The translations under genes were made by a program, and so were the position numbers. A stretch of 64,000 nt of DNA from Anaerovoracaceae bacterium. GTDB lineage: Bacteria > Bacillota > Clostridia > Peptostreptococcales > Anaerovoracaceae. The DNA lies in NCBI GenBank assembly GCA_045546135.1, contig JAZQCD010000010.1, forward strand, positions 1,766 through 65,765, in the 5' to 3' direction. The notes under the pieces are model-generated. The model did no database searches, was not told the origin of the DNA, and saw only the letters and a program-made list of their open reading frames with translations. Positions within the stretch are counted from its first letter, which is position 1. Each line of letters starts with the position of its first letter. Below, in pieces: positions 29,373 through 42,193 of this stretch.

Positions 29373-31922
29373 ATGAAAAGAATTTCGAAAAAAATTTCAT
29401 TGATGAAACTGATCATCATGGCGGCAATAATTGCCGCCATGTTTCCTTGCAAAGCCTTTGCAGAAAGCACAAGTCTTGATACGGGCATAGAAGGACTTTA
29501 TGCAGAATATGATGGAGGCTCATGGACAAGTTCCGGCAATATGATCACCGGTTCTGCTACGGGGACCGCAGAGGATATATGGGACTATGCAAAGAGCGCT
29601 GAAGGGACATTGGTCTTAAAGAATTCTCTCAATGAAGATGCAGTTTTGTCCTTTTCATATTCAGTTACTTTGGCGCAGGGCGGAAAAGTGACCATAGATG
29701 ATGCAGAAGTTTTGGAGAGCGGCAGCTTTTCAAAAAGGCTCGCTCCAAATGAAACTGTTGAAATAACCATTTTTTCAGGAGATCCGGGAGCAAGGACCTC
29801 TGCTGCTGAACTTAAAGGCATCACCTTTACAAAGAAAGTCCACGCCAACGTGACTTTCATGCCTTCAGAATCTGGCGGCTACTATACAGTAGACGGAGAA
29901 ACTGTCACAGAAAAGCTTGTCATAGGGCGCGATGCAGAAGATGGTTTTGATCTCCAAGCCTTCCCAAGTGAAGGATACAAGCTCCTTGGCTGGTATTCAG
30001 ATGCGATCGGTGGATACTTAGGAGACTCAATAGCATTTACGGCATTTTTTGACAGGGACCAGACTGTCTATCCTGTATTTGCAGATGAAGACCTTCCCAT
30101 ATGGCAAGCAGGTGTATATAGATCTTCAGATCTTAATGATGCTGTCCTTTACGCAGCTGAAAATGATATAGAGACCATAGTCCTTGCATCAAGCGGTACT
30201 ATTCCTGCAGGGACATATACTATTCCTTTTGGGCATACTCTCCTGATCCCTTATGACAATGCGGGCACTGTAAACAGGGAAACTCCTGATATATATAAGG
30301 CTTTGGATGCCTTTGCTCCCTATCCGTTCAGGACCCTCACCATGGAGGGAGGAGCTGTGCTTGATATAAAGGGCGCTCTCAATGTAAACGGCAAGATAAA
30401 CTCTGACAATACAGGCTATACGGGAGTAACATCGGGTCCTTACGGATATATATCTATGGAAGAGGGCAGCTCCATAAACCTTAGCAGCGGCGCTTCTTTA
30501 TACTGCTGGGGATATATAGCTGGAGACGGCAGCATCACTGCGGCAAGAGGGTCTTCTGTATTTGAACCATTCCAGATAGCAGACCTAAGAGGCGGTACTG
30601 CTACATCTGCAATGAACAACAATGCAGCAAGGGTCCTTCCTTTCCAGCAGTACTATATACAAAACATCGAAGTTCTCACTGTATACGAGTATGGTTCAAG
30701 AGGACTTGCTGTAGGCTCAACAACCATAGACGGAGACGTGGCAGTTCCTACTCTTAACTTTGCAGGACCTGAAGACGGAAGCCTGTTTAGACTCTCTGCA
30801 GGTTCTTCCTTTTCAAAGAGGTATGACCCAAAAGAAGACAGAGTATATTACGAGATAGACGGGGATGCGAACTTGTCTCCTGTGTCCATACATGCATATA
30901 TAAATGTATATTCAGATAAATATACCCTTCCTTTAATGGAGAATACGACTGTCATCATAAAGTCAGGAACTGTTACTCTTGATCAGGACCTTTGCCTTCT
31001 TCCCGGCAATGAGACAGTAATTGAAAGAGGAGCAGCCCTAAAAGTATCTTCAGGAAACAAACTGTATATATATGACAGGGATGACTACATGGGCAAAGGC
31101 TTTCTCTTTGAAGGCGCTGACATGATGCCCAGCTTCTATCAGCCGGACAGAAAGCCGTCCGATGTATTTGATGAAAGCAAGATGGTCGATGCCATTCTTG
31201 ATGTCTGCGGCAGGCTCGAGGCAGAAGGCAGTGTCTTTACTACTAAGGGCGGAGCAAACATCACCAGCTCAAACGGTCTTGGAAGAGTGGTCTTCATTTC
31301 TGCTGCTTCGGGTCCTGAACTTACCTATCAGACAGTCCAGACAGGTACAGAGGTCGAGTACCAAGGCATAGAGGCAGTACCTCCCATGCTGAAGAACGGA
31401 GTCTTTGGACAAGAGGATGGGTATACACTCACCACCGGCAGCGAAGGGGGTTCATATTTCAGCTATTGCAAAAAAGAGGACAAATGGCATACAGGAGATC
31501 CATGCCAGGATGCAGCTATAACGGTCATTCCTTATCCGCAGGATGCATTTACGGAGTGGACAGACTATGTGGCCCGCGAGAGGACAGTGAATGTCTTTTA
31601 CGACATTCCGTGCAGAGCAGGCTATCTTAAGGACGGAAGGTATGTAAAGCTTGAGCCAAGGAAAGAGGCAGACGGAAGCTATAGTTTCGATGCTCCTGAA
31701 GGTGTAGATGAACTCATACTTGTGATACTTGGCGATGTGAATCTTGACGGCAGGATATCCAATGCAGATTCGACAAAACTCAAGGCCTCAGTAAAGGGAA
31801 TGGCAGCCTTGGATCTTGTTCAGGAATTCGCTGCTGATGTCAACGGAGATAAAAAGATATCCAATGCAGATTCAACGAAATTAAAGGCTGTCGTAAAGGG
31901 TATGACGACCCTTGGCTGGTAG
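29373..31922 (+). CDS. secreted protein of unknown function with a C-terminal dockerin
   Basis: 849 aa with a signal peptide (..MFPCKAFA-ES), one GYKLLGWYSD Listeria-Bacteroides-type repeat, and a long Gly/Ser/Thr-rich, possibly beta-helical, middle. A dockerin sits at the C-terminus. It starts 3 nt after the previous stop. Confidence 0.8.
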   Translation: MKRISKKISLMKLIIMAAIIAAMFPCKAFAESTSLDTGIEGLYAEYDGGSWTSSGNMITGSATGTAEDIWDYAKSAEGTLVLKNSLNEDAVLSFSYSVTLAQGGKVTIDDAEVLESGSFSKRLAPNETVEITIFSGDPGARTSAAELKGITFTKKVHANVTFMPSESGGYYTVDGETVTEKLVIGRDAEDGFDLQAFPSEGYKLLGWYSDAIGGYLGDSIAFTAFFDRDQTVYPVFADEDLPIWQAGVYRSSDLNDAVLYAAENDIETIVLASSGTIPAGTYTIPFGHTLLIPYDNAGTVNRETPDIYKALDAFAPYPFRTLTMEGGAVLDIKGALNVNGKINSDNTGYTGVTSGPYGYISMEEGSSINLSSGASLYCWGYIAGDGSITAARGSSVFEPFQIADLRGGTATSAMNNNAARVLPFQQYYIQNIEVLTVYEYGSRGLAVGSTTIDGDVAVPTLNFAGPEDGSLFRLSAGSSFSKRYDPKEDRVYYEIDGDANLSPVSIHAYINVYSDKYTLPLMENTTVIIKSGTVTLDQDLCLLPGNETVIERGAALKVSSGNKLYIYDRDDYMGKGFLFEGADMMPSFYQPDRKPSDVFDESKMVDAILDVCGRLEAEGSVFTTKGGANITSSNGLGRVVFISAASGPELTYQTVQTGTEVEYQGIEAVPPMLKNGVFGQEDGYTLTTGSEGGSYFSYCKKEDKWHTGDPCQDAAITVIPYPQDAFTEWTDYVARERTVNVFYDIPCRAGYLKDGRYVKLEPRKEADGSYSFDAPEGVDELILVILGDVNLDGRISNADSTKLKASVKGMAALDLVQEFAADVNGDKKISNADSTKLKAVVKGMTTLGW
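31731..31919 (+). other. dockerin module (two Ca-binding loop + helix segments)
   Basis: GDVNLDGRISNADSTKLKASVKG ... ADVNGDKKISNADSTKLKAVVKG. Both loops fit D-x-N-x-D-x(6)-D. Confidence 0.8.
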
Positions 31923-31954
31923 TAAGAAAATGACATATGATAAAGATATAACGG

Positions 31955-31983
31955 CATCCCCGCATCGGCGGGGATGTTTTTGT
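31955..31983 (+). terminator. intrinsic terminator
   Basis: CATCCCCGC-ATCG-GCGGGGATG followed by TTTTTGT. Confidence 0.85.
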
Positions 31984-32156
31984 GTTATCCGTATCCTAAT
32001 ATTTTTTTATTATACAAACATAAAAATATCAAAAATTATTTGTATCCAAGAACTAAAATTATATTGCATCTGAGTTTTAAGAATAGTAAAATACCAAGGT
32101 ATACATAACTAATATTCTTAATGTTATTCCATTTAAGAAGAGAAAGAGGAAATATT

Positions 32157-35100
32157 ATGAAGGGATTCAAAAAAATCACGAGTTTGCTGCTCGTATTTGC
32201 TCTCCTTCTCACCTCAGGTCTTGTCACAAAGTTCTCCTTTGCTGACGAAGACGAGTCCAAGGGACAGGAAGTCTCCTGGCAGGTGGTAGAGAACGATGCA
32301 GACAGAATAGCAGACAGGCTCAACAGCAATGTGCCTTTCGATGATGTCACCGGAATGGAGACTCTGACAGGTACAGTGCGTGTATCCATCCTTCTGGATC
32401 AGCCCTCCACTCTGGATCAGGGATACGAAGCAGCATCCATAGCTTCCAACAGGAGCGCTATGAACTACAGAGCTTCTCTTGAGAAAGCTCAGGACGAACT
32501 TGCTGCCAAGATCTCAAAGAATATCCTCGGCGGAGAAGAGCTGGATGTTGTCTGGAACCTGACATTGGCAGCAAATATCATTTCTGCCTATGTTCCGGCA
32601 GAGAAGATCCCGGCTATCAAGGCTATGAAGGGCGTTAAGGACGTAGTTGTTGAAAACACCTACGAACCTATGGATGACGTAGAGACATCCGATGAACCTA
32701 ACATGGCAGTTGCCTCCGGAATGACTGGTGCCCAGTACGGCTGGGGAGCAGGCTACACCGGTGCAGGCAGTCTCATCGCCATCGTCGATACAGGACTTGA
32801 TGTTGACCATCAGTCATTCAGTTCTGTAGCATACGATATGGCTATAGCAAGACTCAAAGCCACAACAGGAAAAGAAGTAGACCAGCTCACAGCAGAAGAA
32901 GTTGCATCAGTATGGTCACAGCTCAATGCATCCAAGAGGACGAGAGGAACAGTCGATCAGACATATTTCGGTTCCAAGGTCCCTTACGGATTCAACTATG
33001 TTGACAGAAACTTCAACATCATCCACATCAACGATACCCAGGGCGAGCACGGTTCTCACGTTGCAGGTATCGCTGCAGGAAACAGGTTCATATATGAAGA
33101 ATCTGAAGACGGCAGCTTCACACTGAAGAATGCTATTTCCGCAGTAGGAACACAGGGCAACGCTCCTGATGCTCAGCTCCTCATCATGAAGGTATTCGGA
33201 CGCGGCGGCGGAGCTTCCGATTCCGACTACTTTGCAGCCATCGAGGACGCAATAGTTCTCGGAGCAGATGCAGTCAACCTTTCACTTGGTTCTGCAAGCA
33301 AGGGCTTTGCATACAATGCAACTTATGCAGATCTTATAAACAGACTGACAAACACCAATATCATCTGGGCTAACTCCGCAGGAAACAGCGGAGCATGGGC
33401 AGACGCCACCTTTGCAGGCTATACCTACAGCGACCATGTAAACATGGGCACAGGCGGATCCCCTGCAACCTATTCCAACACTCTGTCAACAGCATCTGTT
33501 GACAATGACGGATCTATCGGTGCATATATGCTTGTGGGCGAGGATATGATCTACTATACAGAGACTTCCGGATACGGAAATGCTCCTATGAAGACCATCC
33601 CCGGCACATATCAGTATGTATATATCGACAGCGCAGGACTTCAGGAAGAGTTCGATGCACTCGGACAGGAAATAATCGGCGGAAAGATCGGTATCGCAAA
33701 CCGTGGAACAACATCCTTCTTCCAGAAGGCAAACGGTGCTATGTCCAACGGAGCTATAGCCGGTATCATCGTCAACAACCAGCCGGGAACCATCAGCATG
33801 AACCTGACAGGTTACGAGTATAGTGCTCCTGTAGTATCCATACTCCAGACAGATGGAGCGATCTTGAAGGCGGCAGCTGAAGAGACAGTAGAATATGATG
33901 ACGGAACACTTTCCTTCACATACTATATAGGAACCATCACAGTTGATGACAAGCTCGGTATAAACAACTACAACAGCGAATACTATACAATGAGCTCCTT
34001 CTCAAGCTGGGGCGTTCCTGAAGATCTGTCCTTAAAGCCTGAGATCACAACTCCCGGCGGAAACATCTATTCCGTAAACGGTTATGCAAATTCAGACAGC
34101 GGAATCACTGGCGGACACGATCAGTATGAGCTCATGTCAGGTACATCCATGGCATCTCCTCAGACAGCAGGTATAGTCGGTATCATGTCCCAGTTCTACA
34201 GAGAGTCAGGACTCAAAGAAAGAGCAGATGCTTATGGCCTTACACAGCGCCACATCCTCCAGAGTCTCCTTATGTCCACAGCAAGACCTCTTTACGACAA
34301 GGATTCCGGTAACTACTACAGCGTAATGAAGCAGGGCGCAGGTCTTGCGGATGTCAACGCTGCCATGAACGCAAACGTATTCGTTCTCATGAATGGAACG
34401 ACTGTCGGCGGTGAAGTCAGAAAAGACATTTCTGCATATGCAGCTGACGGAAAAGTCAAGGCAGAACTTGGTGATGACCCGCACAGATCCGGTTTCTATA
34501 CAGTTGAGTTCACGCTCAACAACCTTACAGACGAAGATCGTTTCTATGATCTTGAAGCTGAATTCTTCACTCAGGATGTATTCGGATACTATACATTTGA
34601 TTCCAACGGAGAGCCTATCGCTGATGAGGAAGGAAACCCGGTAGTATCCACATACCTTGATGAGTGGACAGCACCTCTTAGTGCAAATGTCAGGTGGTTC
34701 CTCGACGGAAGAGAATGCATTCCTGATTTCTTCATCGATCCTAACATGGACGGTGAGTTCAATGAGGAAGATGCAGATGCAATACTCGACTTTGTTCTTA
34801 TGGACGGAACAGAAAACCCTGTAGAGATCAATGAAGATGACGCTGATCTCGACGGAGACGGCGCTGTCACCACATACGATGCATATCTTGCACTCAAGTA
34901 TGCAAATATGGGAACAACAGTAGTTCCAGCAAACGGAACAACAACTGTTAAGGTCGAATTCGAACTTACAGACATTGCAGATTACGATGACCACGGCGCA
35001 TTCGTAGAAGGATATATCTCTGCTACAGAAAAAGATTCCGAAGACGGCGAACTCGGAGTAAGACACTCCATCCCGGTACTCGGATACTACGGCAGCTGGA

Positions 35101-38100
35101 GCGAACCATCCTTCATAGATGTCGGATCCGTACGTGAATATGAATACGGTCTTGAGCAGAGAGCTCCGTATATGGCATATCCTCTCGGAACGGCTGCTGA
35201 AGACATCACCGCATTCTTAGGTACTCACGCAACACTCGGAGTCACCTATGTTCTCGGAGGCAACCCTGTCCTTACAGACAGCCAGTACTTCCCTGAAAGA
35301 AATGCTGTAAACAGCAACACAGCCCTTGCAGGTGCATCCTATACACTTATAAGGAACACCGTAGGACTGAAATATCAGCTCTTCGATGAGAGCGGAAAGC
35401 TCATAAATGAATCAACAGGCGGATCAAACACTTACTCCTCTTACTATCACGTGAACCAGGCTAAGTGGATGAACACCAGCACATCTTCTTCCTATGGCTA
35501 CAGGCCATCTTCTGTAAAGGAAGGAGAAGAGGTAACTCTTGCACTGAGCTTTGCTTCCGAATATTATCGCAACAATGAAACAGGCGAGATAGCATGGGAT
35601 GAGATCCAGCCCACAAAGCAGCTCTCATTCGTTATCGACAACACAGCTCCTACAGTATCTTCCGTATTTGGAAAGAGAATGACAACTGAGGACTCCGATA
35701 CAGTCATACTTACACTCGCTGCAACAGACAACGAGTACATAGCAGGCGTATTCGTCTATGACGAAGCAGGCAACCAGCTCTATGGCGAAGGTTCAAGAAC
35801 AGACGCCAAGAAGGAAGGCGCCCGTGACAGAGGAGACTATGCTATCGTTCTCGACGGAGCAAATGTACCTGATCATCTCGAATTCGAGATCTGGGACTAT
35901 GCAGCCAACGTAACTACAGTCATGGTCAACCTCAACAAGGATGAACTCAGCGATCCTGTATCTGTAGTACTCGACACTGAAGAAGCTATGAGCGTTGTCG
36001 GCAATACTATCAAGATCAACGCAACAGTATATCCTTGGGGAACTGAGGATCAGAGAGTCACATGGACAAGCAGCGATGAAACAGTTGCAACAGTTGAGGA
36101 CGGTCTCGTACTCGGTGTTGGAGCAGGAACTGCAACCATTACAGCTACATCAGTTCTCGATCCTAACGCATCCGCAACATGCGAAGTCAAGTTCATAACC
36201 ATCGACAGAGACTTAAACGGAATCGTTTGGGATGAAAACGGTCAGGTATGGTTCTCAGAATTCAACCTGAACACACTTCCTGAATACACAAGACTTACAG
36301 ATGAAAGCTCAATAGTTCCTCTTACATCAACGGCATACGGTGCAGACGGAACTCTCTACGCTGTGACTTTCGATACAGAAGGATTCCTTTCTGACCTCTA
36401 TACAGTAGATGAAGGGACATTCGAGGCGACATTTGTAGGTTCCAATACTGAGATAGGATATATGGATCTGGCTCCTGCACCGAGCCTTGGAGAGAATATC
36501 CTCATGGGCGTATACGGACCTTATGCAGTCATCGTAGACGCAACAACAGGCGGATATGTCGGTGTATTCGATCTCAGCGCTTATATGACCGGAAGCTACC
36601 TTGTAGGTATCGCATACGAGGAACAGTACTATCATCCGCTCTACGGCAATACAGATTGGTACTTCTTCATTGATGACGCAGGTAATCTCTACAACTGTGG
36701 ATTCCTTCCATACAACGGATCTTACAGCAGATTCGGAGTATCTGCTGTCGGAAACCTCGGATCAACAGCAGATGTTCCTTACTTCCAGTCACTCTACTAT
36801 GACGGAACAGATCTTTACTGGTCCAACTACTCTGAAAGCAAGGGCGTTGTAGATGTCATATTCGTAAACGATCTCTATAACGACGGAGCCATCTTCAAGG
36901 CTGGTTCCTTCGCTCCGGACGTATGGCCTGTAGGAGGACTTTGGAACGAGAACATCAAGTCCATGATCGGCATAGCAGCAGAAGGCGGAGATAAGGCAGC
37001 TGCAGTTATTGACGAAAGTGGCGAACTCCTTGCAAAGGCAGAACCTATCAACTTCAGAAAAGTAAGCGCAGACGGCGGCCTCAATGCAGCAAATGTTCAG
37101 AGTGTTGTTTCCGGAGCAGGCCTCCTCGGAATAGAAACAGAAGTCAATGTTCCTGACAAGACGACCACAGCTACCATCACCATCGATGCAGCAGGCGACG
37201 TCCTCGGTGAAGACGGAGTTACTTATGTAACACACAACGGTCTTTACGAAGTTATCTACGATGCAGAGGTACTTGAAGTCGAAAGCTGCACATCAACTCT
37301 CGATCACTTCCGTGCATACGGAGTTGACGGCAGGGTCAAGGTCGTATTTGCAGACCTTGAAGGTGTAGCAGAAGGCGAAACAGTAGCAACCATCGTATTC
37401 AAGACGATTGAAAATGTTGATACTACAGTATACGTAGACACTATTGAATCCGAAGACAACTTCGAATCTTCTGAAGAAGAATACGAGATCCCGAAAGTAA
37501 AAGGCCATCTCGTTGTAACAGCATCTGATGCAAGCAAGGAATACGGTGAAGAGGATCCTGAACTCGAGTGGAGTGCAGAAGGATTTGTCGGAGATGACAC
37601 CGAAGAACTCCTCGAAGGTCTTGTAACAGTAACAAGAGAAGAGGGCGAAGATGTCGGCACATATGTGATCACTGTCGCAGGTCCTGAAGAGATCGATGAC
37701 TACACCATTGAATATGTAGAAGGTGAGTTTGAGATCACTAAGGCACACCTCGTGGTAACAGCATCCGATGCAAGCAAGGAATACGGCGAAGATGATCCTG
37801 AACTCGAGTGGAGTGCAGAAGGATTTGTCGGAGATGACACCGAAGAACTCCTCGAAGGTCTTGTAACAGTAACAAGAGAAGAAGGCGAAGATGTCGGAAC
37901 ATATGAGATCACAGTTACCGGTCCTGAAGAGATCGACAATTACACCATCGAATATGTAAACGGCACATTCGAGATCGAACAGAGCCTCACAGTCGTCGCT
38001 TACCCGCAGGATTCCTTCGTAGAGGATGAACAGTACCATGTTGAAGGCAATATACTTTGGGTCTCATACCCACAGGCATGCAAGGTTGGATACCTTGTAA

Positions 38101-38390
38101 ACGGAGAGTATGTAGCACTTCCTTACCACAATCTGACTCAGAACAGTTACATCTACCTCGTACCGGCTGATGTAAAGGAAGTCATCATCGTTGTAAAGGG
38201 CGATGTAAACCTTGACGGAAGTCTTTCAAATGCAGATGCTACAAAACTCAAGGCAGCTGTAAAGGGAGCAGCAGAACTTGATGCAGTTCAGGCATTCGCA
38301 GCAGATGTCAACGGTGACGGAAGCCTTTCTAACGCAGATGCTACAAAACTCAAAGCAGTTGTTAAGGGTGCAGCATCTCTTGACTGGTAA
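32157..38390 (+). CDS. giant secreted S8 subtilisin-family peptidase (cell-envelope-protease-like, with PA insert) ending in a dockerin
   Basis: Signal peptide, then an I9-like propeptide. The catalytic triad is in context: IAIVDTGLD, HGSHVAGIAAG, SGTSMASPQTAG. The PA-domain insert reads GKIGIANRGTTSFFQKA. There is a Big_2-like domain, two 80-aa repeats and a C-terminal dockerin. The ATG at 32157 follows the RBS AGAGGA. Confidence 0.9.
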   Translation: MKGFKKITSLLLVFALLLTSGLVTKFSFADEDESKGQEVSWQVVENDADRIADRLNSNVPFDDVTGMETLTGTVRVSILLDQPSTLDQGYEAASIASNRSAMNYRASLEKAQDELAAKISKNILGGEELDVVWNLTLAANIISAYVPAEKIPAIKAMKGVKDVVVENTYEPMDDVETSDEPNMAVASGMTGAQYGWGAGYTGAGSLIAIVDTGLDVDHQSFSSVAYDMAIARLKATTGKEVDQLTAEEVASVWSQLNASKRTRGTVDQTYFGSKVPYGFNYVDRNFNIIHINDTQGEHGSHVAGIAAGNRFIYEESEDGSFTLKNAISAVGTQGNAPDAQLLIMKVFGRGGGASDSDYFAAIEDAIVLGADAVNLSLGSASKGFAYNATYADLINRLTNTNIIWANSAGNSGAWADATFAGYTYSDHVNMGTGGSPATYSNTLSTASVDNDGSIGAYMLVGEDMIYYTETSGYGNAPMKTIPGTYQYVYIDSAGLQEEFDALGQEIIGGKIGIANRGTTSFFQKANGAMSNGAIAGIIVNNQPGTISMNLTGYEYSAPVVSILQTDGAILKAAAEETVEYDDGTLSFTYYIGTITVDDKLGINNYNSEYYTMSSFSSWGVPEDLSLKPEITTPGGNIYSVNGYANSDSGITGGHDQYELMSGTSMASPQTAGIVGIMSQFYRESGLKERADAYGLTQRHILQSLLMSTARPLYDKDSGNYYSVMKQGAGLADVNAAMNANVFVLMNGTTVGGEVRKDISAYAADGKVKAELGDDPHRSGFYTVEFTLNNLTDEDRFYDLEAEFFTQDVFGYYTFDSNGEPIADEEGNPVVSTYLDEWTAPLSANVRWFLDGRECIPDFFIDPNMDGEFNEEDADAILDFVLMDGTENPVEINEDDADLDGDGAVTTYDAYLALKYANMGTTVVPANGTTTVKVEFELTDIADYDDHGAFVEGYISATEKDSEDGELGVRHSIPVLGYYGSWSEPSFIDVGSVREYEYGLEQRAPYMAYPLGTAAEDITAFLGTHATLGVTYVLGGNPVLTDSQYFPERNAVNSNTALAGASYTLIRNTVGLKYQLFDESGKLINESTGGSNTYSSYYHVNQAKWMNTSTSSSYGYRPSSVKEGEEVTLALSFASEYYRNNETGEIAWDEIQPTKQLSFVIDNTAPTVSSVFGKRMTTEDSDTVILTLAATDNEYIAGVFVYDEAGNQLYGEGSRTDAKKEGARDRGDYAIVLDGANVPDHLEFEIWDYAANVTTVMVNLNKDELSDPVSVVLDTEEAMSVVGNTIKINATVYPWGTEDQRVTWTSSDETVATVEDGLVLGVGAGTATITATSVLDPNASATCEVKFITIDRDLNGIVWDENGQVWFSEFNLNTLPEYTRLTDESSIVPLTSTAYGADGTLYAVTFDTEGFLSDLYTVDEGTFEATFVGSNTEIGYMDLAPAPSLGENILMGVYGPYAVIVDATTGGYVGVFDLSAYMTGSYLVGIAYEEQYYHPLYGNTDWYFFIDDAGNLYNCGFLPYNGSYSRFGVSAVGNLGSTADVPYFQSLYYDGTDLYWSNYSESKGVVDVIFVNDLYNDGAIFKAGSFAPDVWPVGGLWNENIKSMIGIAAEGGDKAAAVIDESGELLAKAEPINFRKVSADGGLNAANVQSVVSGAGLLGIETEVNVPDKTTTATITIDAAGDVLGEDGVTYVTHNGLYEVIYDAEVLEVESCTSTLDHFRAYGVDGRVKVVFADLEGVAEGETVATIVFKTIENVDTTVYVDTIESEDNFESSEEEYEIPKVKGHLVVTASDASKEYGEEDPELEWSAEGFVGDDTEELLEGLVTVTREEGEDVGTYVITVAGPEEIDDYTIEYVEGEFEITKAHLVVTASDASKEYGEDDPELEWSAEGFVGDDTEELLEGLVTVTREEGEDVGTYEITVTGPEEIDNYTIEYVNGTFEIEQSLTVVAYPQDSFVEDEQYHVEGNILWVSYPQACKVGYLVNGEYVALPYHNLTQNSYIYLVPADVKEVIIVVKGDVNLDGSLSNADATKLKAAVKGAAELDAVQAFAADVNGDGSLSNADATKLKAVVKGAASLDW
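34737..34912 (+). other. internal dockerin-like double EF-hand module inside the subtilase
   Basis: DPNMDGEFNEEDADAILDFVL ... DLDGDGAVTTYDAYLALKYA. Both segments fit the dockerin loop-helix pattern. Confidence 0.6.
37500..37979 (+). repeat. tandem direct duplication, 2 x 240 bp (2 x 80 aa, YG-type Ig-like/MBG-like repeat)
   Basis: Copies at 37500-37739 and 37740-37979. By hand count there are about 30 mismatches in 240, with an 89-nt perfectly identical core (37554-37642 = 37794-37882). Confidence 0.9.
38199..38387 (+). other. dockerin module of the subtilase
   Basis: GDVNLDGSLSNADATKLKAAVKG ... ADVNGDGSLSNADATKLKAVVKG. Confidence 0.8.
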
Positions 38391-38432
38391 AAACGATCAG
38401 ACGTAACTTTTCGTAAAGTTTATGTTATCTAG

Positions 38433-38465
38433 CGGCGAGGTCTATGTGCCTCGCCGTTTCTTTTG
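38433..38465 (+). terminator. intrinsic terminator
   Basis: CGGCGAGG-TCTATGTG-CCTCGCCG followed by TTTCTTTTG. Confidence 0.8.
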
Positions 38466-38577
38466 TACGATTTTTCCAAAAATAACGGAACAAATGTCGA
38501 AAAATACTTGAATGTTGCGCTGGAAATCTGATACAATTATCGGTAAATCGTTATGCCCAAAAATAGGAGGTTCGGCT

Positions 38578-40236
38578 ATGAAAAAAAGTAAATTTATTTT
38601 ATGCTTTATCTTAGCTGTTGCAATGTTAGTAAGCGTCGTCCCCTTTGGGGACATGGTCTTTGCTGCGGACAAGGATTACAAATTTAAATACAGCGTATCC
38701 TCGAATGCGAACAACGGCACTGTAGGTAATGTTACAGGTACAGTATATGATGACTATTCTGCAGACATCGTCTTTACAGGCAGCGCAGTCAACAGAAGCA
38801 ATGCTAAGGTAGAGATCTGGATGAAGAATGTTGCAAGTCTTGGCGTATCAGATCCTAAGTACTATGTGAGAAATGTAGAAACGGGTCTTACGGGCGAAGA
38901 CACTTCCATGGATAACGTCAAAGCGAGATTCAATGGATTTAACGAGGAAACCACATTCAATGTGACCGTAAACGGTGACAAAAAGATGTCCTATAAGGTC
39001 AAGAACGAGATCGGCAGCGACATGAAGGTCGTTAAGGTCAACGCAACTCCGAGCAGCTTCGAGGAAGCTCATGATGTCTGGTATGCCATTACGGCTGAAG
39101 AAAACATCAAGACGACACATGACGGAGAAAGAGACAGCTTCTTCCTTATCAAAAACGGTTCATGGCTTCAGGTAGGAGACCAAAAGGTCGAATTCGAAGG
39201 AAGCGATGATCTTAAGATCGACAATGTAGGACAGCTCAAATACATCTATGATTCCATCAAGGCGGCTCTTGCTCTCAATACAGTTGAAGCAGGAGAAGAA
39301 GCAGAAGGCATAGTCCTTTACTTTGAACCCCACACTGTCTTCTCAGTAGGAGCAAGCAGCGTAGAACTGTTAAAGGATGCCAGAGTCACAGTAAAGATGG
39401 AGACCGAAGATCTCATCGATTCCATAAAGGCTCTTCAGGAAAGCGAAGATTCTGAAGCTCTGATCAAGGATATGCTTGCGTTCATCGAGAATGTGATCAC
39501 TGAAGTAGGCGGAAAGTCAAACGATATCGACATAGAGTTCGGCCACAAGTATCCTGCACAGGGTGAAGATGAAAACAACCCCACCTGGGAATGGGCAGAG
39601 GATTACTCCTGGGCAAAGGCAACCTTCACCTGCACAAACAACGATACACACGAAAAAGAGACCTTTGATGCAACTGTTACATCAAAAACAGAAGGCGGAA
39701 AGACCATCTATACTGCAACCGTTACAGTAAACGGAGAAGAGTATACGGATACAAAGGAAGTGCAGAACGACATAATCGTTGAACCGCATGCAGAAAATGA
39801 ACGCTTTTTCGAAAATGAGGACGATAAGGATGTAACTAACGATGCGTTTGATTCATATACGATCAACGGACATGTAGTAACGGTCAAGTGTAAGCTTCCA
39901 TGCAGGATCGGATATCTCGAGGAAGGCGCAAAAGTATATACGCCTGTAAAGGCAGTTTTGCTCGAAGGCACTACCGATCAGTATACATATACGGTTCCTG
40001 ACCATATCAACAAGGTAATACTCGTATTGGTCGGAGATGCAAATCTTACAGGAAACCATTCTAACGCTGATTCAACTGCCACCAAGGCACATATCAAGGG
40101 CATCAATTATCTTGATGTTATCGAGCAGTTTGCAGCGGATGCCAACTTCAGCAATTCAATTTCAAATGCAGACTCTACATCCATAAAGGCGCATATCAAA
40201 GGCATCAGATACTTTAAGTGGGAAGTGCAAGAATAA
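38578..40236 (+). CDS. secreted protein of unknown function with a divergent C-terminal dockerin-like module
   Basis: The ATG at 38578 follows AGGAGG. The signal peptide is MKKSKFILCFILAVAMLVSVVPFGDMVFA. The C-terminus reads GDANLTGNHSNADSTATKAHIKG ... ADANFSNSISNADSTSIKAHIKG. Confidence 0.75.
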   Translation: MKKSKFILCFILAVAMLVSVVPFGDMVFAADKDYKFKYSVSSNANNGTVGNVTGTVYDDYSADIVFTGSAVNRSNAKVEIWMKNVASLGVSDPKYYVRNVETGLTGEDTSMDNVKARFNGFNEETTFNVTVNGDKKMSYKVKNEIGSDMKVVKVNATPSSFEEAHDVWYAITAEENIKTTHDGERDSFFLIKNGSWLQVGDQKVEFEGSDDLKIDNVGQLKYIYDSIKAALALNTVEAGEEAEGIVLYFEPHTVFSVGASSVELLKDARVTVKMETEDLIDSIKALQESEDSEALIKDMLAFIENVITEVGGKSNDIDIEFGHKYPAQGEDENNPTWEWAEDYSWAKATFTCTNNDTHEKETFDATVTSKTEGGKTIYTATVTVNGEEYTDTKEVQNDIIVEPHAENERFFENEDDKDVTNDAFDSYTINGHVVTVKCKLPCRIGYLEEGAKVYTPVKAVLLEGTTDQYTYTVPDHINKVILVLVGDANLTGNHSNADSTATKAHIKGINYLDVIEQFAADANFSNSISNADSTSIKAHIKGIRYFKWEVQE

Positions 40237-40411
40237 TTCATATTTATGTAAAAAAAATGTAGAGTTTTGAACGTTATTGGATTATAATTAATGAAAGAGA
40301 ATGGGTGGGTAGTCTTACTGTTCAAAACGATTTGGGAAGTAGGACTGTTCAGTCGATTCTTTAGATATTTTAGGTTTTTATTTTTCAAACTATAAAACGG
40401 AGGTCATGAGA

Positions 40412-42193
40412 ATGAAAAAGAAACTGATTGCAGTACTCCTCTGCATGGTGCTTGTCATAGCGGCTGTGCCGAGCGTATTTGCAGCAAACGACAGGGAGGT
40501 CACATTTACAGTAACACAGAGTCCTGTAAGCCTCACACAGAGTGCCAGCGAACAGACAGTCACTCTTTCAGTTGATGCTAACAAGACCGTAACTGTAGAC
40601 GGCATTCAGGCAATGCTCCCATATCCGAATGCAGACGGAGAAACAGGACCCTGGACAATAAGTGCTATTGGAAACAAGACACTTACATTCAGAGGTGCCC
40701 ACTATCAGGTAAAGAAGGCTGACGATCCTACAACAGGTCAGATCACATGGGATTCTGAAGATCCTGAAACAGGTGATATGCCTTCTCTCGAAACAACTAA
40801 TCTTTTCACTGTCACCTACAAGATTCCTGCAGGTACACCTGCCGGTGAGTATGTTGTTGAGATCAATGATTTTGAGCTCACAGACAACGGCGGAGACATT
40901 TGGGAATCAACAAGTCTCACATATACAGTTGTTATCGAAGAAGCTCCTACACCGCTTAACGGCGTAACAGTTGCTCCGGAAACAGCAACACTCTTCCCCG
41001 GAGATACTCAGGAACTCGTAGCTACATATGATCCTGAAAAGCCATCTATCCAAACAGCAACATGGACATCCAGCGACACAACAGTTGCAACAGTTGACGA
41101 AGACGGAGTTGTAAAAGCAGTTGCAGGCGGAACAGCAACTATTACTCACACAGTAACAGACGTTCTTGGCAACACAAAGACAGCTACAGCTACCATTACT
41201 GTTTACAAGACAGTTGACAAGCCGACAGCAGCAACAGGACTTAAGTATACAGGTTCTGAACAGACAGGCGTTGCAGCAGCAACAGGATACACAGTTGAAG
41301 GCGGCAAGGGAACAAATGCAGGCAACTACACAGCAACTGCAACACTTGCAGAAGGCTATGCATGGTCTGACAATACAACAGATCCTGTTCCGGTAGAATG
41401 GTCCATCGCTCCTAAGACAGTAGCAGCTCCGGCTCCGACTGAAACTGAGTTCGAATACAACGGCAAGGCTCAGACAGTTGCAGAAGGAACAAGCGAATAC
41501 ACAGTTGAGGGCGGAACACAGACAAACGCAGGCGAGTACACAGCAACAGCAACTCTCAAGGATGCAACAAACTATACTTGGGAAGACGGCAAAACAGCAC
41601 CTGTAACCATTGAATGGGTCATCACTCCAAAGGAAGTTGAACTTCCGGAGGCTAAGACAGGTCTTGTATATAACGGATCTGAGCAGACCGGTGTAGAAGG
41701 AACTGACGAATATACAGTCGAGGGCGGCAAGGAAACAAATGCCGGCACATATACAGCAACAGTAGCTCTCAAGGATAAGGCTAACTATGTTTGGGCGAAT
41801 AACGGACAGAGCGCAGATCAGACAGTAGATTGGGAGATCGAGCAGGCTGAACTTACAGCTGACAAACTCGAACTCGCAGTTGGCGGATCCAAGCAGCTTC
41901 CGGAAGAGGAAGGCGTATCCTATGAGCTCGTAGAGCCTGCAGAAGGTGAAGAGCCTGTTGTAGAACTCAGCGAAGACGGAACAGTCAAGGGTCTTAAGGA
42001 AGGTGAAGCAACCATCGTTGTAGTATCCAATGGACAAGGAAACTACAAGCGTGGTGATGCTGAGATCACAGTCACAGTGACCAAGCCTCCTGTAACCGGA
42101 GACAAGACAATGCTCTACATCGTTTCTGCAATAGCAGCACTCGTAGTTCTTGGTGCATATCTCATCGTATCCAAGAAGAAAGAGCAGAGATAA
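40412..42193 (+). CDS. cell-wall-anchored scaffoldin-like protein: cohesin-like domain + Big_2 + three repeats + PPVTG sorting signal
   Basis: Signal peptide (MKKKLIAVLLCMVLVIAAVPSVFA), then a beta-sandwich of about 155 aa with a cohesin-like pattern. A Big_2 domain follows (ATWTSSDTTVATVDEDGVVKAVAGGTATIT), then three repeats of about 65-72 aa. The C-terminus is PPVTG + hydrophobic helix + KKKEQR. An alternative ATG exists at 40406. Confidence 0.75.
   Translation: MKKKLIAVLLCMVLVIAAVPSVFAANDREVTFTVTQSPVSLTQSASEQTVTLSVDANKTVTVDGIQAMLPYPNADGETGPWTISAIGNKTLTFRGAHYQVKKADDPTTGQITWDSEDPETGDMPSLETTNLFTVTYKIPAGTPAGEYVVEINDFELTDNGGDIWESTSLTYTVVIEEAPTPLNGVTVAPETATLFPGDTQELVATYDPEKPSIQTATWTSSDTTVATVDEDGVVKAVAGGTATITHTVTDVLGNTKTATATITVYKTVDKPTAATGLKYTGSEQTGVAAATGYTVEGGKGTNAGNYTATATLAEGYAWSDNTTDPVPVEWSIAPKTVAAPAPTETEFEYNGKAQTVAEGTSEYTVEGGTQTNAGEYTATATLKDATNYTWEDGKTAPVTIEWVITPKEVELPEAKTGLVYNGSEQTGVEGTDEYTVEGGKETNAGTYTATVALKDKANYVWANNGQSADQTVDWEIEQAELTADKLELAVGGSKQLPEEEGVSYELVEPAEGEEPVVELSEDGTVKGLKEGEATIVVVSNGQGNYKRGDAEITVTVTKPPVTGDKTMLYIVSAIAALVVLGAYLIVSKKKEQR
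40490..40945 (+). other. cohesin-like domain (candidate dockerin receptor)
   Basis: EVTFTVTQSPVSL..TVTLSVDANKTVTVDGIQAMLPYP...GQITWDSE...LFTVTYKIPAGTPAGEYVVEINDFELTD. This matches the general cohesin strand pattern by eye and has not been HMM-verified. Confidence 0.5.
41219..41848 (+). repeat. three tandem protein repeats of about 65-72 aa (Y-x-G-x-x-Q ... TNAG-x-YTAT type)
   Basis: GLKYTGSEQTGV..GKGTNAGNYTATATL / EFEYNGKAQTV..GTQTNAGEYTATATL / GLVYNGSEQTGV..GKETNAGTYTATVAL. Confidence 0.75.
42086..42193 (+). other. sortase-type tripartite cell-wall sorting signal
   Basis: PPVTG (42086-42100), then DKTM, a hydrophobic stretch (LYIVSAIAALVVLGAYLIV) and a basic tail (SKKKEQR). Confidence 0.6.

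Follow-up and report, generated by a model that had tools for sequence, protein, structure and literature searches.

In a 64,000-nucleotide stretch of contig JAZQCD010000010.1 from an Anaerovoracaceae bacterium (hereafter the window), three secreted proteins encoded side by side, which we call A, B and C, end in the same pair of domains: a small beta module and, directly behind it, a dockerin. Our main finding is that the module is a distinct, so far unnamed domain, with a core of about 65 to 70 amino acids (aa) and a seven-stranded all-beta fold, and that a dockerin is its obligate C-terminal neighbour. We report the homology of the module copies, the size of their family, their adjacency to dockerins, their absence from domain libraries, their fold class and their pattern of conservation. 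The role that we propose, to which we give a little better than an even chance, is that of a brace: like an X-module, the module would support the dockerins of one type-I-like clade with internal symmetry, together with which it travels as one cassette.

Cohesin-dockerin systems are usually studied in cellulose degraders, where X-modules are limited to a few scaffoldin anchors. Here, an unnamed module is the obligatory partner of what appear to be type-I-like dockerins on proteases, lipases, leucine-rich repeat (LRR) and adhesin-like proteins and putative adaptor scaffoldins, and the hosts of this non-cellulosomal network are uncultured gut Clostridia of humans and ruminants. The new family, which counts at least 423 clusters at 50% identity, could join the domain libraries, and the module would be a sequence marker for one non-cellulosomal surface-display network of the gut and for its candidate cohesin family. 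It also offers a natural system in which to study the need of some dockerins for a chaperoning neighbour, and, isolated dockerins being notoriously unstable, a compact 130-aa 'stabilised dockerin' tag could serve protein engineering.

Three unrelated proteins share a module and a dockerin

Open reading frame (ORF) calls on the window place four consecutive genes, A to D, on the plus strand between 29.4 and 42.2 kb. The first three carry the module and the dockerin at their C-terminal ends, as follows (scores against Pfam Dockerin_1 are to be read against its cut-off of 22.9 bits).

31515-31733, plus strand: module copy A (aa 715-787), in which AlphaFold2 places the seven strands
31734-31919, plus strand: dockerin A (aa 788-849), type-I-like by its sequence, with two near-identical repeats; Pfam Dockerin_1 25.7 bits
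37983-38198, plus strand: module copy B (aa 1955-2026)
38199-38387, plus strand: dockerin B (aa 2027-2089); Pfam Dockerin_1 39.7 bits
39769-40032, plus strand: module copy C (aa 420-507)
40033-40221, plus strand: dockerin C (aa 508-570), with degenerate Ca2+ loops; 126 bits with a hidden Markov model (HMM) of the window dockerins

The window modules are 65 to 88 aa long, each directly N-terminal to a C-terminal dockerin; module C has an insertion of about 16 to 21 aa past strand 1, and its conserved core starts near position 39850. When the modules alone were compared by BLASTP, copy A matched copy B with 37% identity (E=9e-16) and copy C with 29% identity (E=4e-8). The shared segment before three dockerins, which the original prediction had noticed by eye, is therefore real; the coordinates given for it agree with ours to within a few bases, and the strings quoted from it were all found, as was the motif P-C-[RK]-x-G-Y-L ... 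Y-x-[FY] ... P ... [ILV]I[LIV]V..GD. An HMM of the three modules, run against the six frames of the window, retrieved these three copies only, the next best match having E>1. The carriers had also been described as otherwise unrelated, and this is borne out: once module and dockerin were removed, A, B and C gave no mutual BLASTP match at E<1.

Recent gene conversion or duplication was considered as the source of the shared tails and rejected, as differences between the tail DNA sequences are scattered, largely synonymous and without long identical tracts. Because such tracts are missing, the likeness of the tails is attributed to selection, which keeps the paralogous dockerins of the window alike, presumably for one shared cohesin.

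A large family with a fixed architecture

The first relatives were found with a query made of module and dockerin, and a module-only profile was then built from 20 sequences. A module-only search of a word-indexed protein database with the three window copies gave no match, these copies being too divergent for the index. An exhaustive HMMER search of 1.84 billion representative proteins with the module-only profile, on the other hand, yielded 423 matches at E<=1e-3 and 281 at E<=1e-10, each match being the representative of a cluster at 50% identity.

The architecture of the family was read from 165 inspectable matching proteins, 162 of which hold a complete module; three of the 165 are giant repeat proteins with weak, partial matches of 10 to 18 bits per stretch. 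A dockerin directly follows the module in 161 of the 162, and the sole exception, P0176, is truncated precisely at the module-dockerin junction (an NCBI 'partial' record). The gap between the two domains is 0 residues in 158 of the 161, and the end of the module lies 63 to 81 aa from the C-terminus in 158 of the 165 proteins, the dyad always being C-terminal. Some members (P0005, P0012 and P0022) consist only of a signal peptide, a short linker, the module and the dockerin.

What precedes the dyad is very diverse. A Pfam census of 121 family members recorded cohesins (14), Flg_new repeats (12), Cthe_2159 (10) and BspA-type LRRs (LRR_5, 7), and, more rarely, transglutaminase-like domains (4), GDSL lipases (3), GH25 (1), CHAP (1) and SASA (1); no cellulase was present among these 121. 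An S8 protease is also among the cargo (gene B), and other module-dockerin proteins hold homologues of the cargo part of protein A in their own cargo. That module and dockerin had been shuffled together was one of the possibilities raised at the outset. Near-constant adjacency, a junction of fixed length and dozens of cargo types now support it: module and dockerin make up one cassette that has spread over many unrelated secreted proteins.

The carriers of the dyad are gut Oscillospirales-type Clostridia. Dyad loci were found in gut metagenome-assembled genomes labelled Eubacteriales, Acutalibacteraceae, Oscillospiraceae or Clostridia, whose hosts are human, roe deer and sheep, and further loci come from human gut metagenomes. 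The related loci (12) were retrieved with one narrow peptide pattern from a closer subset, which under-samples the breadth of taxa.

Two further features of the family were observed. P0023, P0026, P0027 and P0029 have a second, more divergent beta segment before dockerins of the same clade (..GDEYTVLKCTT..H.YT..V....E...AfKGDVNLDG), which the module HMM does not detect (E=0.15); the 423 clusters may thus not cover all of a 'beta module + dockerin' superfamily. Besides, a short Cys/His knuckle, H-x-[FY]-x-x-G-x-C-x-C-G-A, lies at most 40 aa upstream of the module in 57 of 142 relatives (P0010, P0040, P0056 and P0064 included); in many cases a second C-x-C/H motif stands before it. The knuckle may serve as a small element of the linker that binds metal, and protein A holds a possible degenerate trace of it (YCKKEDKWHTGDPC).

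The module is an unnamed all-beta domain

Searches of Pfam-A and NCBIfam with the full proteins A, B and C gave no match over the module region. Run alone against Pfam at E<=10, 20 module sequences gave sub-threshold noise only, with no match to a Pfam family of carbohydrate-binding modules (CBMs); the matches of single modules to Peptidase_M60_C (E=0.0011) and Chitin_bind_4 (E=0.0019) were below threshold and were treated as noise. Against the sequences of the PDB, the module profile found no relative, and a profile of module plus dockerin matched chains at dockerin positions only.

AlphaFold2 modelled the module alone as a compact all-beta domain of seven strands without any helix (predicted local distance difference test, pLDDT, 92.8), and module plus dockerin as a two-domain chain with a pLDDT of 94.8 and a predicted template modelling score (pTM) of 0.87. 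In the model of protein A, the final strand of the module (ELILVI) stops one residue short of the G-D with which Ca2+ loop 1 begins. A Foldseek comparison of the module with the PDB returned nothing significant, only generic beta-sandwich matches (best E=0.24, template modelling score, TM, at most 0.43), with CBM21 (E=0.24, TM 0.30) and C-terminal beta domains of sugar enzymes at the top; neither X-modules nor InlB B-repeats were among the top 50 matches of the dyad or of the module. The module had not been recognised as a named domain when first noticed, and it remains without a counterpart in Pfam-A and NCBIfam, in PDB sequences and among significant Foldseek matches.

The same surface proteins often contain the divergent InlB B-repeat (Flg_new_2 of Pfam, PF18998); could the module be a degenerate copy of it? 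The two have a similar length and a short motif in common, G-Y ... N-G-D-G-T-Y-S-F-x-x-P-x-G-V. Using hhalign, the module profile aligned with the repeats of P0105, which Pfam confirms as Flg_new_2, over 49 columns with a probability of 94% (E=1.4e-7); the reverse HMM matches many modules at 12 to 27 bits, and dyad proteins often carry Flg_new and Flg_new_2 repeats in their cargo. However, P0105 had been picked from the 1.84 billion proteins by the module profile itself, so that its E-value is inflated by selection. The Pfam model matches 0 of the 20 modules even at E<=10, the common signal is mostly the short motif NGDGTYSFxMP, and the structural comparison, with its lack of InlB B-repeats and a module model devoid of helix, points the same way. 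Flg_new_2 also forms tandem repeats at any place in a protein, in contrast to the module, a single copy locked to the dockerin. We regard this origin as very doubtful. Canonical Listeria-Bacteroides repeats (Flg_new) were rejected as homologues of the module, since hhalign gave them a probability of 17%.

The dockerins belong to a marked clade

Dockerin_1 was present in 110 of the 121 scanned family members. The dockerin half retrieved type I dockerins in Foldseek (2ccl_B, TM 0.94), and the best PDB matches of the dyad profile were 8x39 (E=8e-18), 2ccl_B (E=4e-12) and Ruminococcus bromii Amy16 (E=9e-9). By its sequence, then, the dyad dockerin appears type-I-like, with two predicted Ca2+-binding loop-helix repeats and internal symmetry, as in the ordinary type I dockerins of Clostridium thermocellum Xyn10B (1OHZ/2CCL) and R. 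bromii Amy16 (9QF9). The helix positions of the two repeats are 65% identical within a protein, compared to 25% between proteins; symmetric repeats are a trait of type I dockerins with dual binding (PMC5301203). The window dockerins are 62 to 63 aa long and have no insertions.

Two differences set these dockerins apart from ordinary ones. Ordinary type I dockerins of cellulosomal enzymes follow a flexible linker, whereas here a folded module always precedes the dockerin, without linker. The clade also has marks of its own: F-x-x-D (F-A-A-D) stands before loop 2 in 134 of 161 module-linked dockerins, and a W is found among the last 8 residues in 149 of 161. In a small control, made of nine module-less dockerins from the same search, the F motif was seen in 0 of 9 and the W in 2 of 9. 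Dockerins without module also exist in related loci, namely L003 and L009 ('GDVNxNGVVNTYDAVL' type), L005 and L006. Because recognition helices vary widely inside the module-linked clade, the module is tied to one clade of dockerins and not to one specificity. That the module always goes with one dockerin subtype consequently holds for the clade, but not for the recognition helices within it.

Dockerin C is a degenerate member, whose Pfam Dockerin_1 score (16.3 bits) is below the cut-off. Its loops read DANLTG and DANFSN instead of DxNxDG, but it retains the duplicated SNADST helix motif. Binding of Ca2+ may be weak or absent in this dockerin. Protein B contains, in addition to its C-terminal dockerin, the following element.

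34737-34913, plus strand: internal dockerin-like insert of B (aa 873-931); Dockerin_1 22.7 bits, against the cut-off of 22.9

This insert has two EF-hand-like loop-helix repeats (DPNMDGEFNEEDADAILDF ... DADLDGDGAVTTYDAYLALKY) and sits just before an Fn3-like domain. It is of a different subtype from the C-terminal dockerins and has no beta module in front, so that the rule of a module before each dockerin applies to the three C-terminal dockerins of the window but not to this one.

The module is more conserved than the dockerin across species

Among 158 representatives, mean pairwise identity is 53.6% for the module core versus 35.0% for the dockerin; in 94.5% of pairs, conservation is higher in the module. 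The paralogues of the window show the reverse, with modules 26 to 33% identical and dockerins 51 to 75% identical. This pattern of identity, across species on the one hand and between paralogues on the other, argues that the dockerin tracks the cohesin of its genome and that the module does not, the latter being under a different constraint, independent of the genome. In close orthologues of A, the module is 96 to 97% identical against 92 to 93% for the cargo, although counts are small. The module also contains a 97% conserved Cys and several invariant aromatic residues.

Taken with the symmetry of the dockerin, the conservation pattern argues that the module is not a determinant of specificity. 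The pattern carries most of the weight. The symmetry suggests that the module does not force a single binding orientation, but this is a weak argument, because the dockerins of the X-module-dockerin (XDoc) dyads of ScaB and CttA also keep duplicated recognition residues (PMC5301203). The alternative raised by the original prediction, that the module extends the dockerin interface, is thus not favoured, since the module is conserved while the recognition helices of the dockerin vary between species.

Three other views of the module have to be weighed against these figures. First, it might be a passive passenger, that is, a spacer that lay by chance beside an ancestral dockerin and has been copied along ever since, with no role in dockerin function. 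The presence of the same tail on dozens of unrelated cargo proteins would fit, as would the marked divergence of the window copies and the working-looking dockerins without module in related genomes. Yet the module has been lost in none of the 161 complete representatives, with a junction of exactly 0 residues in 158 of them, and it is better conserved than the dockerin and, in the few close orthologues of A, than the cargo. A passenger seems to us distinctly improbable.

Second, the module could have a binding function of its own, for a glycan of the cell wall or of the host or some other conserved ligand, or for a conserved patch on cohesin-bearing scaffoldins. This would turn the tail into a bipartite anchor, in which the module adds affinity or targeting and not merely stability. 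Its greater conservation across species, which includes polar positions of the N-x-DGSYSFTAPEGV hairpin, the invariant aromatics and the conserved Cys all speak in favour of such a function, and the weak Foldseek matches at the top of the list are CBM21 and C-terminal beta domains of sugar enzymes. For the X-module of C. thermocellum, moreover, it has been proposed that it stabilises the fold of the dockerin and so maximises the affinity for cohesin (PMC5141474). However, no CBM or adhesin family matches the module at any threshold, the Foldseek matches are non-significant (E>=0.24, TM<=0.43), and the cargo is too varied for one common substrate. No module was seen away from a dockerin either, an unusual trait for a domain that binds autonomously, and dockerin symmetry mildly disfavours a fixed contact between module and cohesin. 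On balance, we consider a binding function unlikely, if still credible.

Third, and in our view quite unlikely, the module could be a second, species-independent recognition element, which would offer the invariant Cys/Tyr and the N-x-DGSYSFTAPEGV hairpin as a conserved surface to a conserved partner. Candidates for this partner would be a polymer of the cell wall, a factor of export or quality control, or a constant part of the scaffoldins that bear cohesins. If true, attachment in the gut cohesin-dockerin network would use two keys, a variable one in the dockerin and a constant one in the module.

A proposed brace for the dockerin

Our preferred reading remains that the module is a built-in support of the dockerin. 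Dockerins on their own are 'characteristically unstable', and a stabilising effect on them has been attributed to X-modules (PMC5141474, PMC5301203); for type II dockerins, X-modules 'provide the required stabilization' through 'an intimate hydrophobic interface' (PMC5141474; also PMC5301203). In our proteins, the last beta strand of the module (..VILVVK) passes without linker into Ca2+ loop 1 of the dockerin (GDVNxDG), so that both domains most likely fold as one rigid unit. The module would probably be a base, brace or stalk that stabilises an otherwise marginally stable dockerin, and would keep the flexible linker of the cargo off the cohesin-binding face. Partner specificity would be set by the dockerin helices and not by the module, the likely partner being the divergent cohesin found in protein D, with its sortase-type anchor, and in related adaptors. 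The dyad has spread as one cassette onto unrelated secreted proteins of gut Oscillospirales-type Clostridia. A stabilising, X-module-like role, which the original prediction had also raised, would fit both the confident single-unit AlphaFold2 model and the missing linker.

Several points weigh against this proposal. Rigid packing of module and dockerin is suggested by only two things, the pTM value and the absence of a linker. An identity of 54% across species, which extends to the apparently surface-exposed N-x-D-G-S-Y-S-F-T-A-P-E-G-V, is high for a purely structural support, and such conservation at exposed positions could reflect a conserved binding surface. The divergence of the window modules (26 to 33% identity) is unusual for the family and could mean relaxed constraint in this lineage. 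The analogy with X-modules is without direct precedent, known X-modules going with type II or type III scaffoldin dockerins and not with type-I-like dockerins of cargo. Finally, adjacency to a dockerin was read among the matches listed, a set that excludes 273 of the 423.

The architecture of an XDoc dyad, that is, a beta module directly before a C-terminal dockerin in the same chain, is present in all three window proteins. As in the type II XDocs of C. thermocellum ScaA/CipA and CipB (2B59, 3KCP), this module is seven-stranded; the proposed role of the C. thermocellum X-module is to stabilise the dockerin fold (PMC5141474). The latter module is, however, about 98 aa long and Ig-like, has a small helix and resembles domain II of carboxypeptidase D, whereas ours is about 65 to 72 aa long and has no helix. 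In C. thermocellum, the XDoc dockerin is of type II and found on scaffoldins, while the one studied here is symmetric, apparently type-I-like, and found on cargo and adaptors alike; the X-module 'is absent in type-I Docs of the enzyme subunits' of cellulosomes (PMC5141474). With the XDoc chains 2b59_B, 3kcp_A, 4wi0_B and 4u3s_B, the dyad profile aligns at dockerin positions only (E 0.01 to 0.8).

The arrangement of genes resembles that of Ruminococcus flavefaciens, where ScaB, CttA and a cysteine peptidase carry type III XDocs (4IU3) that bind the cohesin of ScaE, itself sortase-anchored (PMC5301203). Here too, several dyad proteins, a peptidase included, are encoded near an LPXTG-type anchored protein with a single cohesin, and the cohesin profile of D matches R. 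flavefaciens cohesins including ScaE. The dockerins of R. flavefaciens XDocs have three insertions that buttress a stalk-like X-module (PMC5301203), whereas the dockerins of the window have none, and our module has no detectable relation to the R. flavefaciens X-module. The module is therefore not a member of the known X-module families, as it shows no match to them in sequence or fold and its dockerin is not type II- or type III-like. The known design principle of XDocs is found here with an unrelated, previously unnamed module.

A candidate cohesin partner and the gene neighbourhood

Downstream of gene C, the window encodes a surface-anchored protein with a divergent cohesin.

40406-42193, plus strand: gene D (595 aa), surface-anchored, presumed partner of the dockerins
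40481-40960, plus strand: divergent cohesin of D, N-terminal (aa 26-185), with a profile match to R. flavefaciens cohesins
42086-42190, plus strand: sortase-like signal of D, C-terminal, made of PPVTG, a transmembrane (hydrophobic) segment and KKKEQR

A profile of the N-terminus of D and its homologues matches the R. flavefaciens cohesins 5m2o_A (E=5.4e-6), 5aoz, 5m2s and ScaE 4iu2 (E=0.03). The C-terminal tail of D scores just under the cut-off of LPXTG_anchor (15.5 versus 15.9), and D also holds Big_2 and several MBG-like repeats. D thus looks like a ScaE-like cell-surface socket, encoded right after three dockerin genes. A D-like cohesin gene lies directly downstream of a module-dockerin gene in L001, L002, L003, L009 and L011, which is also the order of C and D in the window, and on human-gut contigs a module-dockerin gene sits between cohesin genes. 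In 29 representative dyad proteins, a D-like cohesin is found at the N-terminus of the dyad protein itself, which would make these proteins adaptor scaffoldins. Synteny and profile similarity together point to the divergent cohesin of D and related adaptors as the likely partner of the dyad dockerins.

The three genes that carry the dyad are the following.

29373-31922, plus strand: gene A (849 aa), secreted cargo of unknown function, with module and dockerin as its tail
32121-38390, plus strand: gene B (2089 aa), S8 subtilase with PA, Big_2, 2x MBG_2, module and dockerin
38512-40236, plus strand: gene C (574 aa), secreted, without Pfam match, with module and dockerin as its tail

Dockerin_1 is the sole Pfam match of protein A, whose cargo has no recognisable domain. 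Signal-peptide-like starts are present in all of A to D, in B and C only past a likely downstream start codon: in both, the longest ORF begins 5' of the signal peptide, and the true starts are likely to be Met13 (32157) for B and Met23 (38578) for C. For B, this rests on an orthologue in locus L018, which begins with MKGFKK and so matches a start at Met13. A scan of the whole window with Rfam gave no match.

Directly 5' of module B lie two MBG_2 (YGX-type) repeats in tandem (37506-37745 and 37746-37982), which are nearly identical and suggest a recent internal duplication. Further upstream, a segment of B at about 37173-37490 (aa ~1685-1790), in common with P0002 and P0207, looks cohesin-like by eye (..YEVIYDAEVLEV..GRVKVVFADLEGVAEGETVATIVFK..); it has no PDB sequence match and no Pfam cohesin match. 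As for close relatives of the locus, P0191 is identical to protein A across aa 30-849, and the metagenomic locus L018 (ENA ERZ27257205, contig k141_6373694) has the same gene order as the window, with a nucleoside phosphorylase gene, a 2-oxoacid_dh-like gene, A and B. Its A is about 93% identical and its B 96% identical to those of the window.

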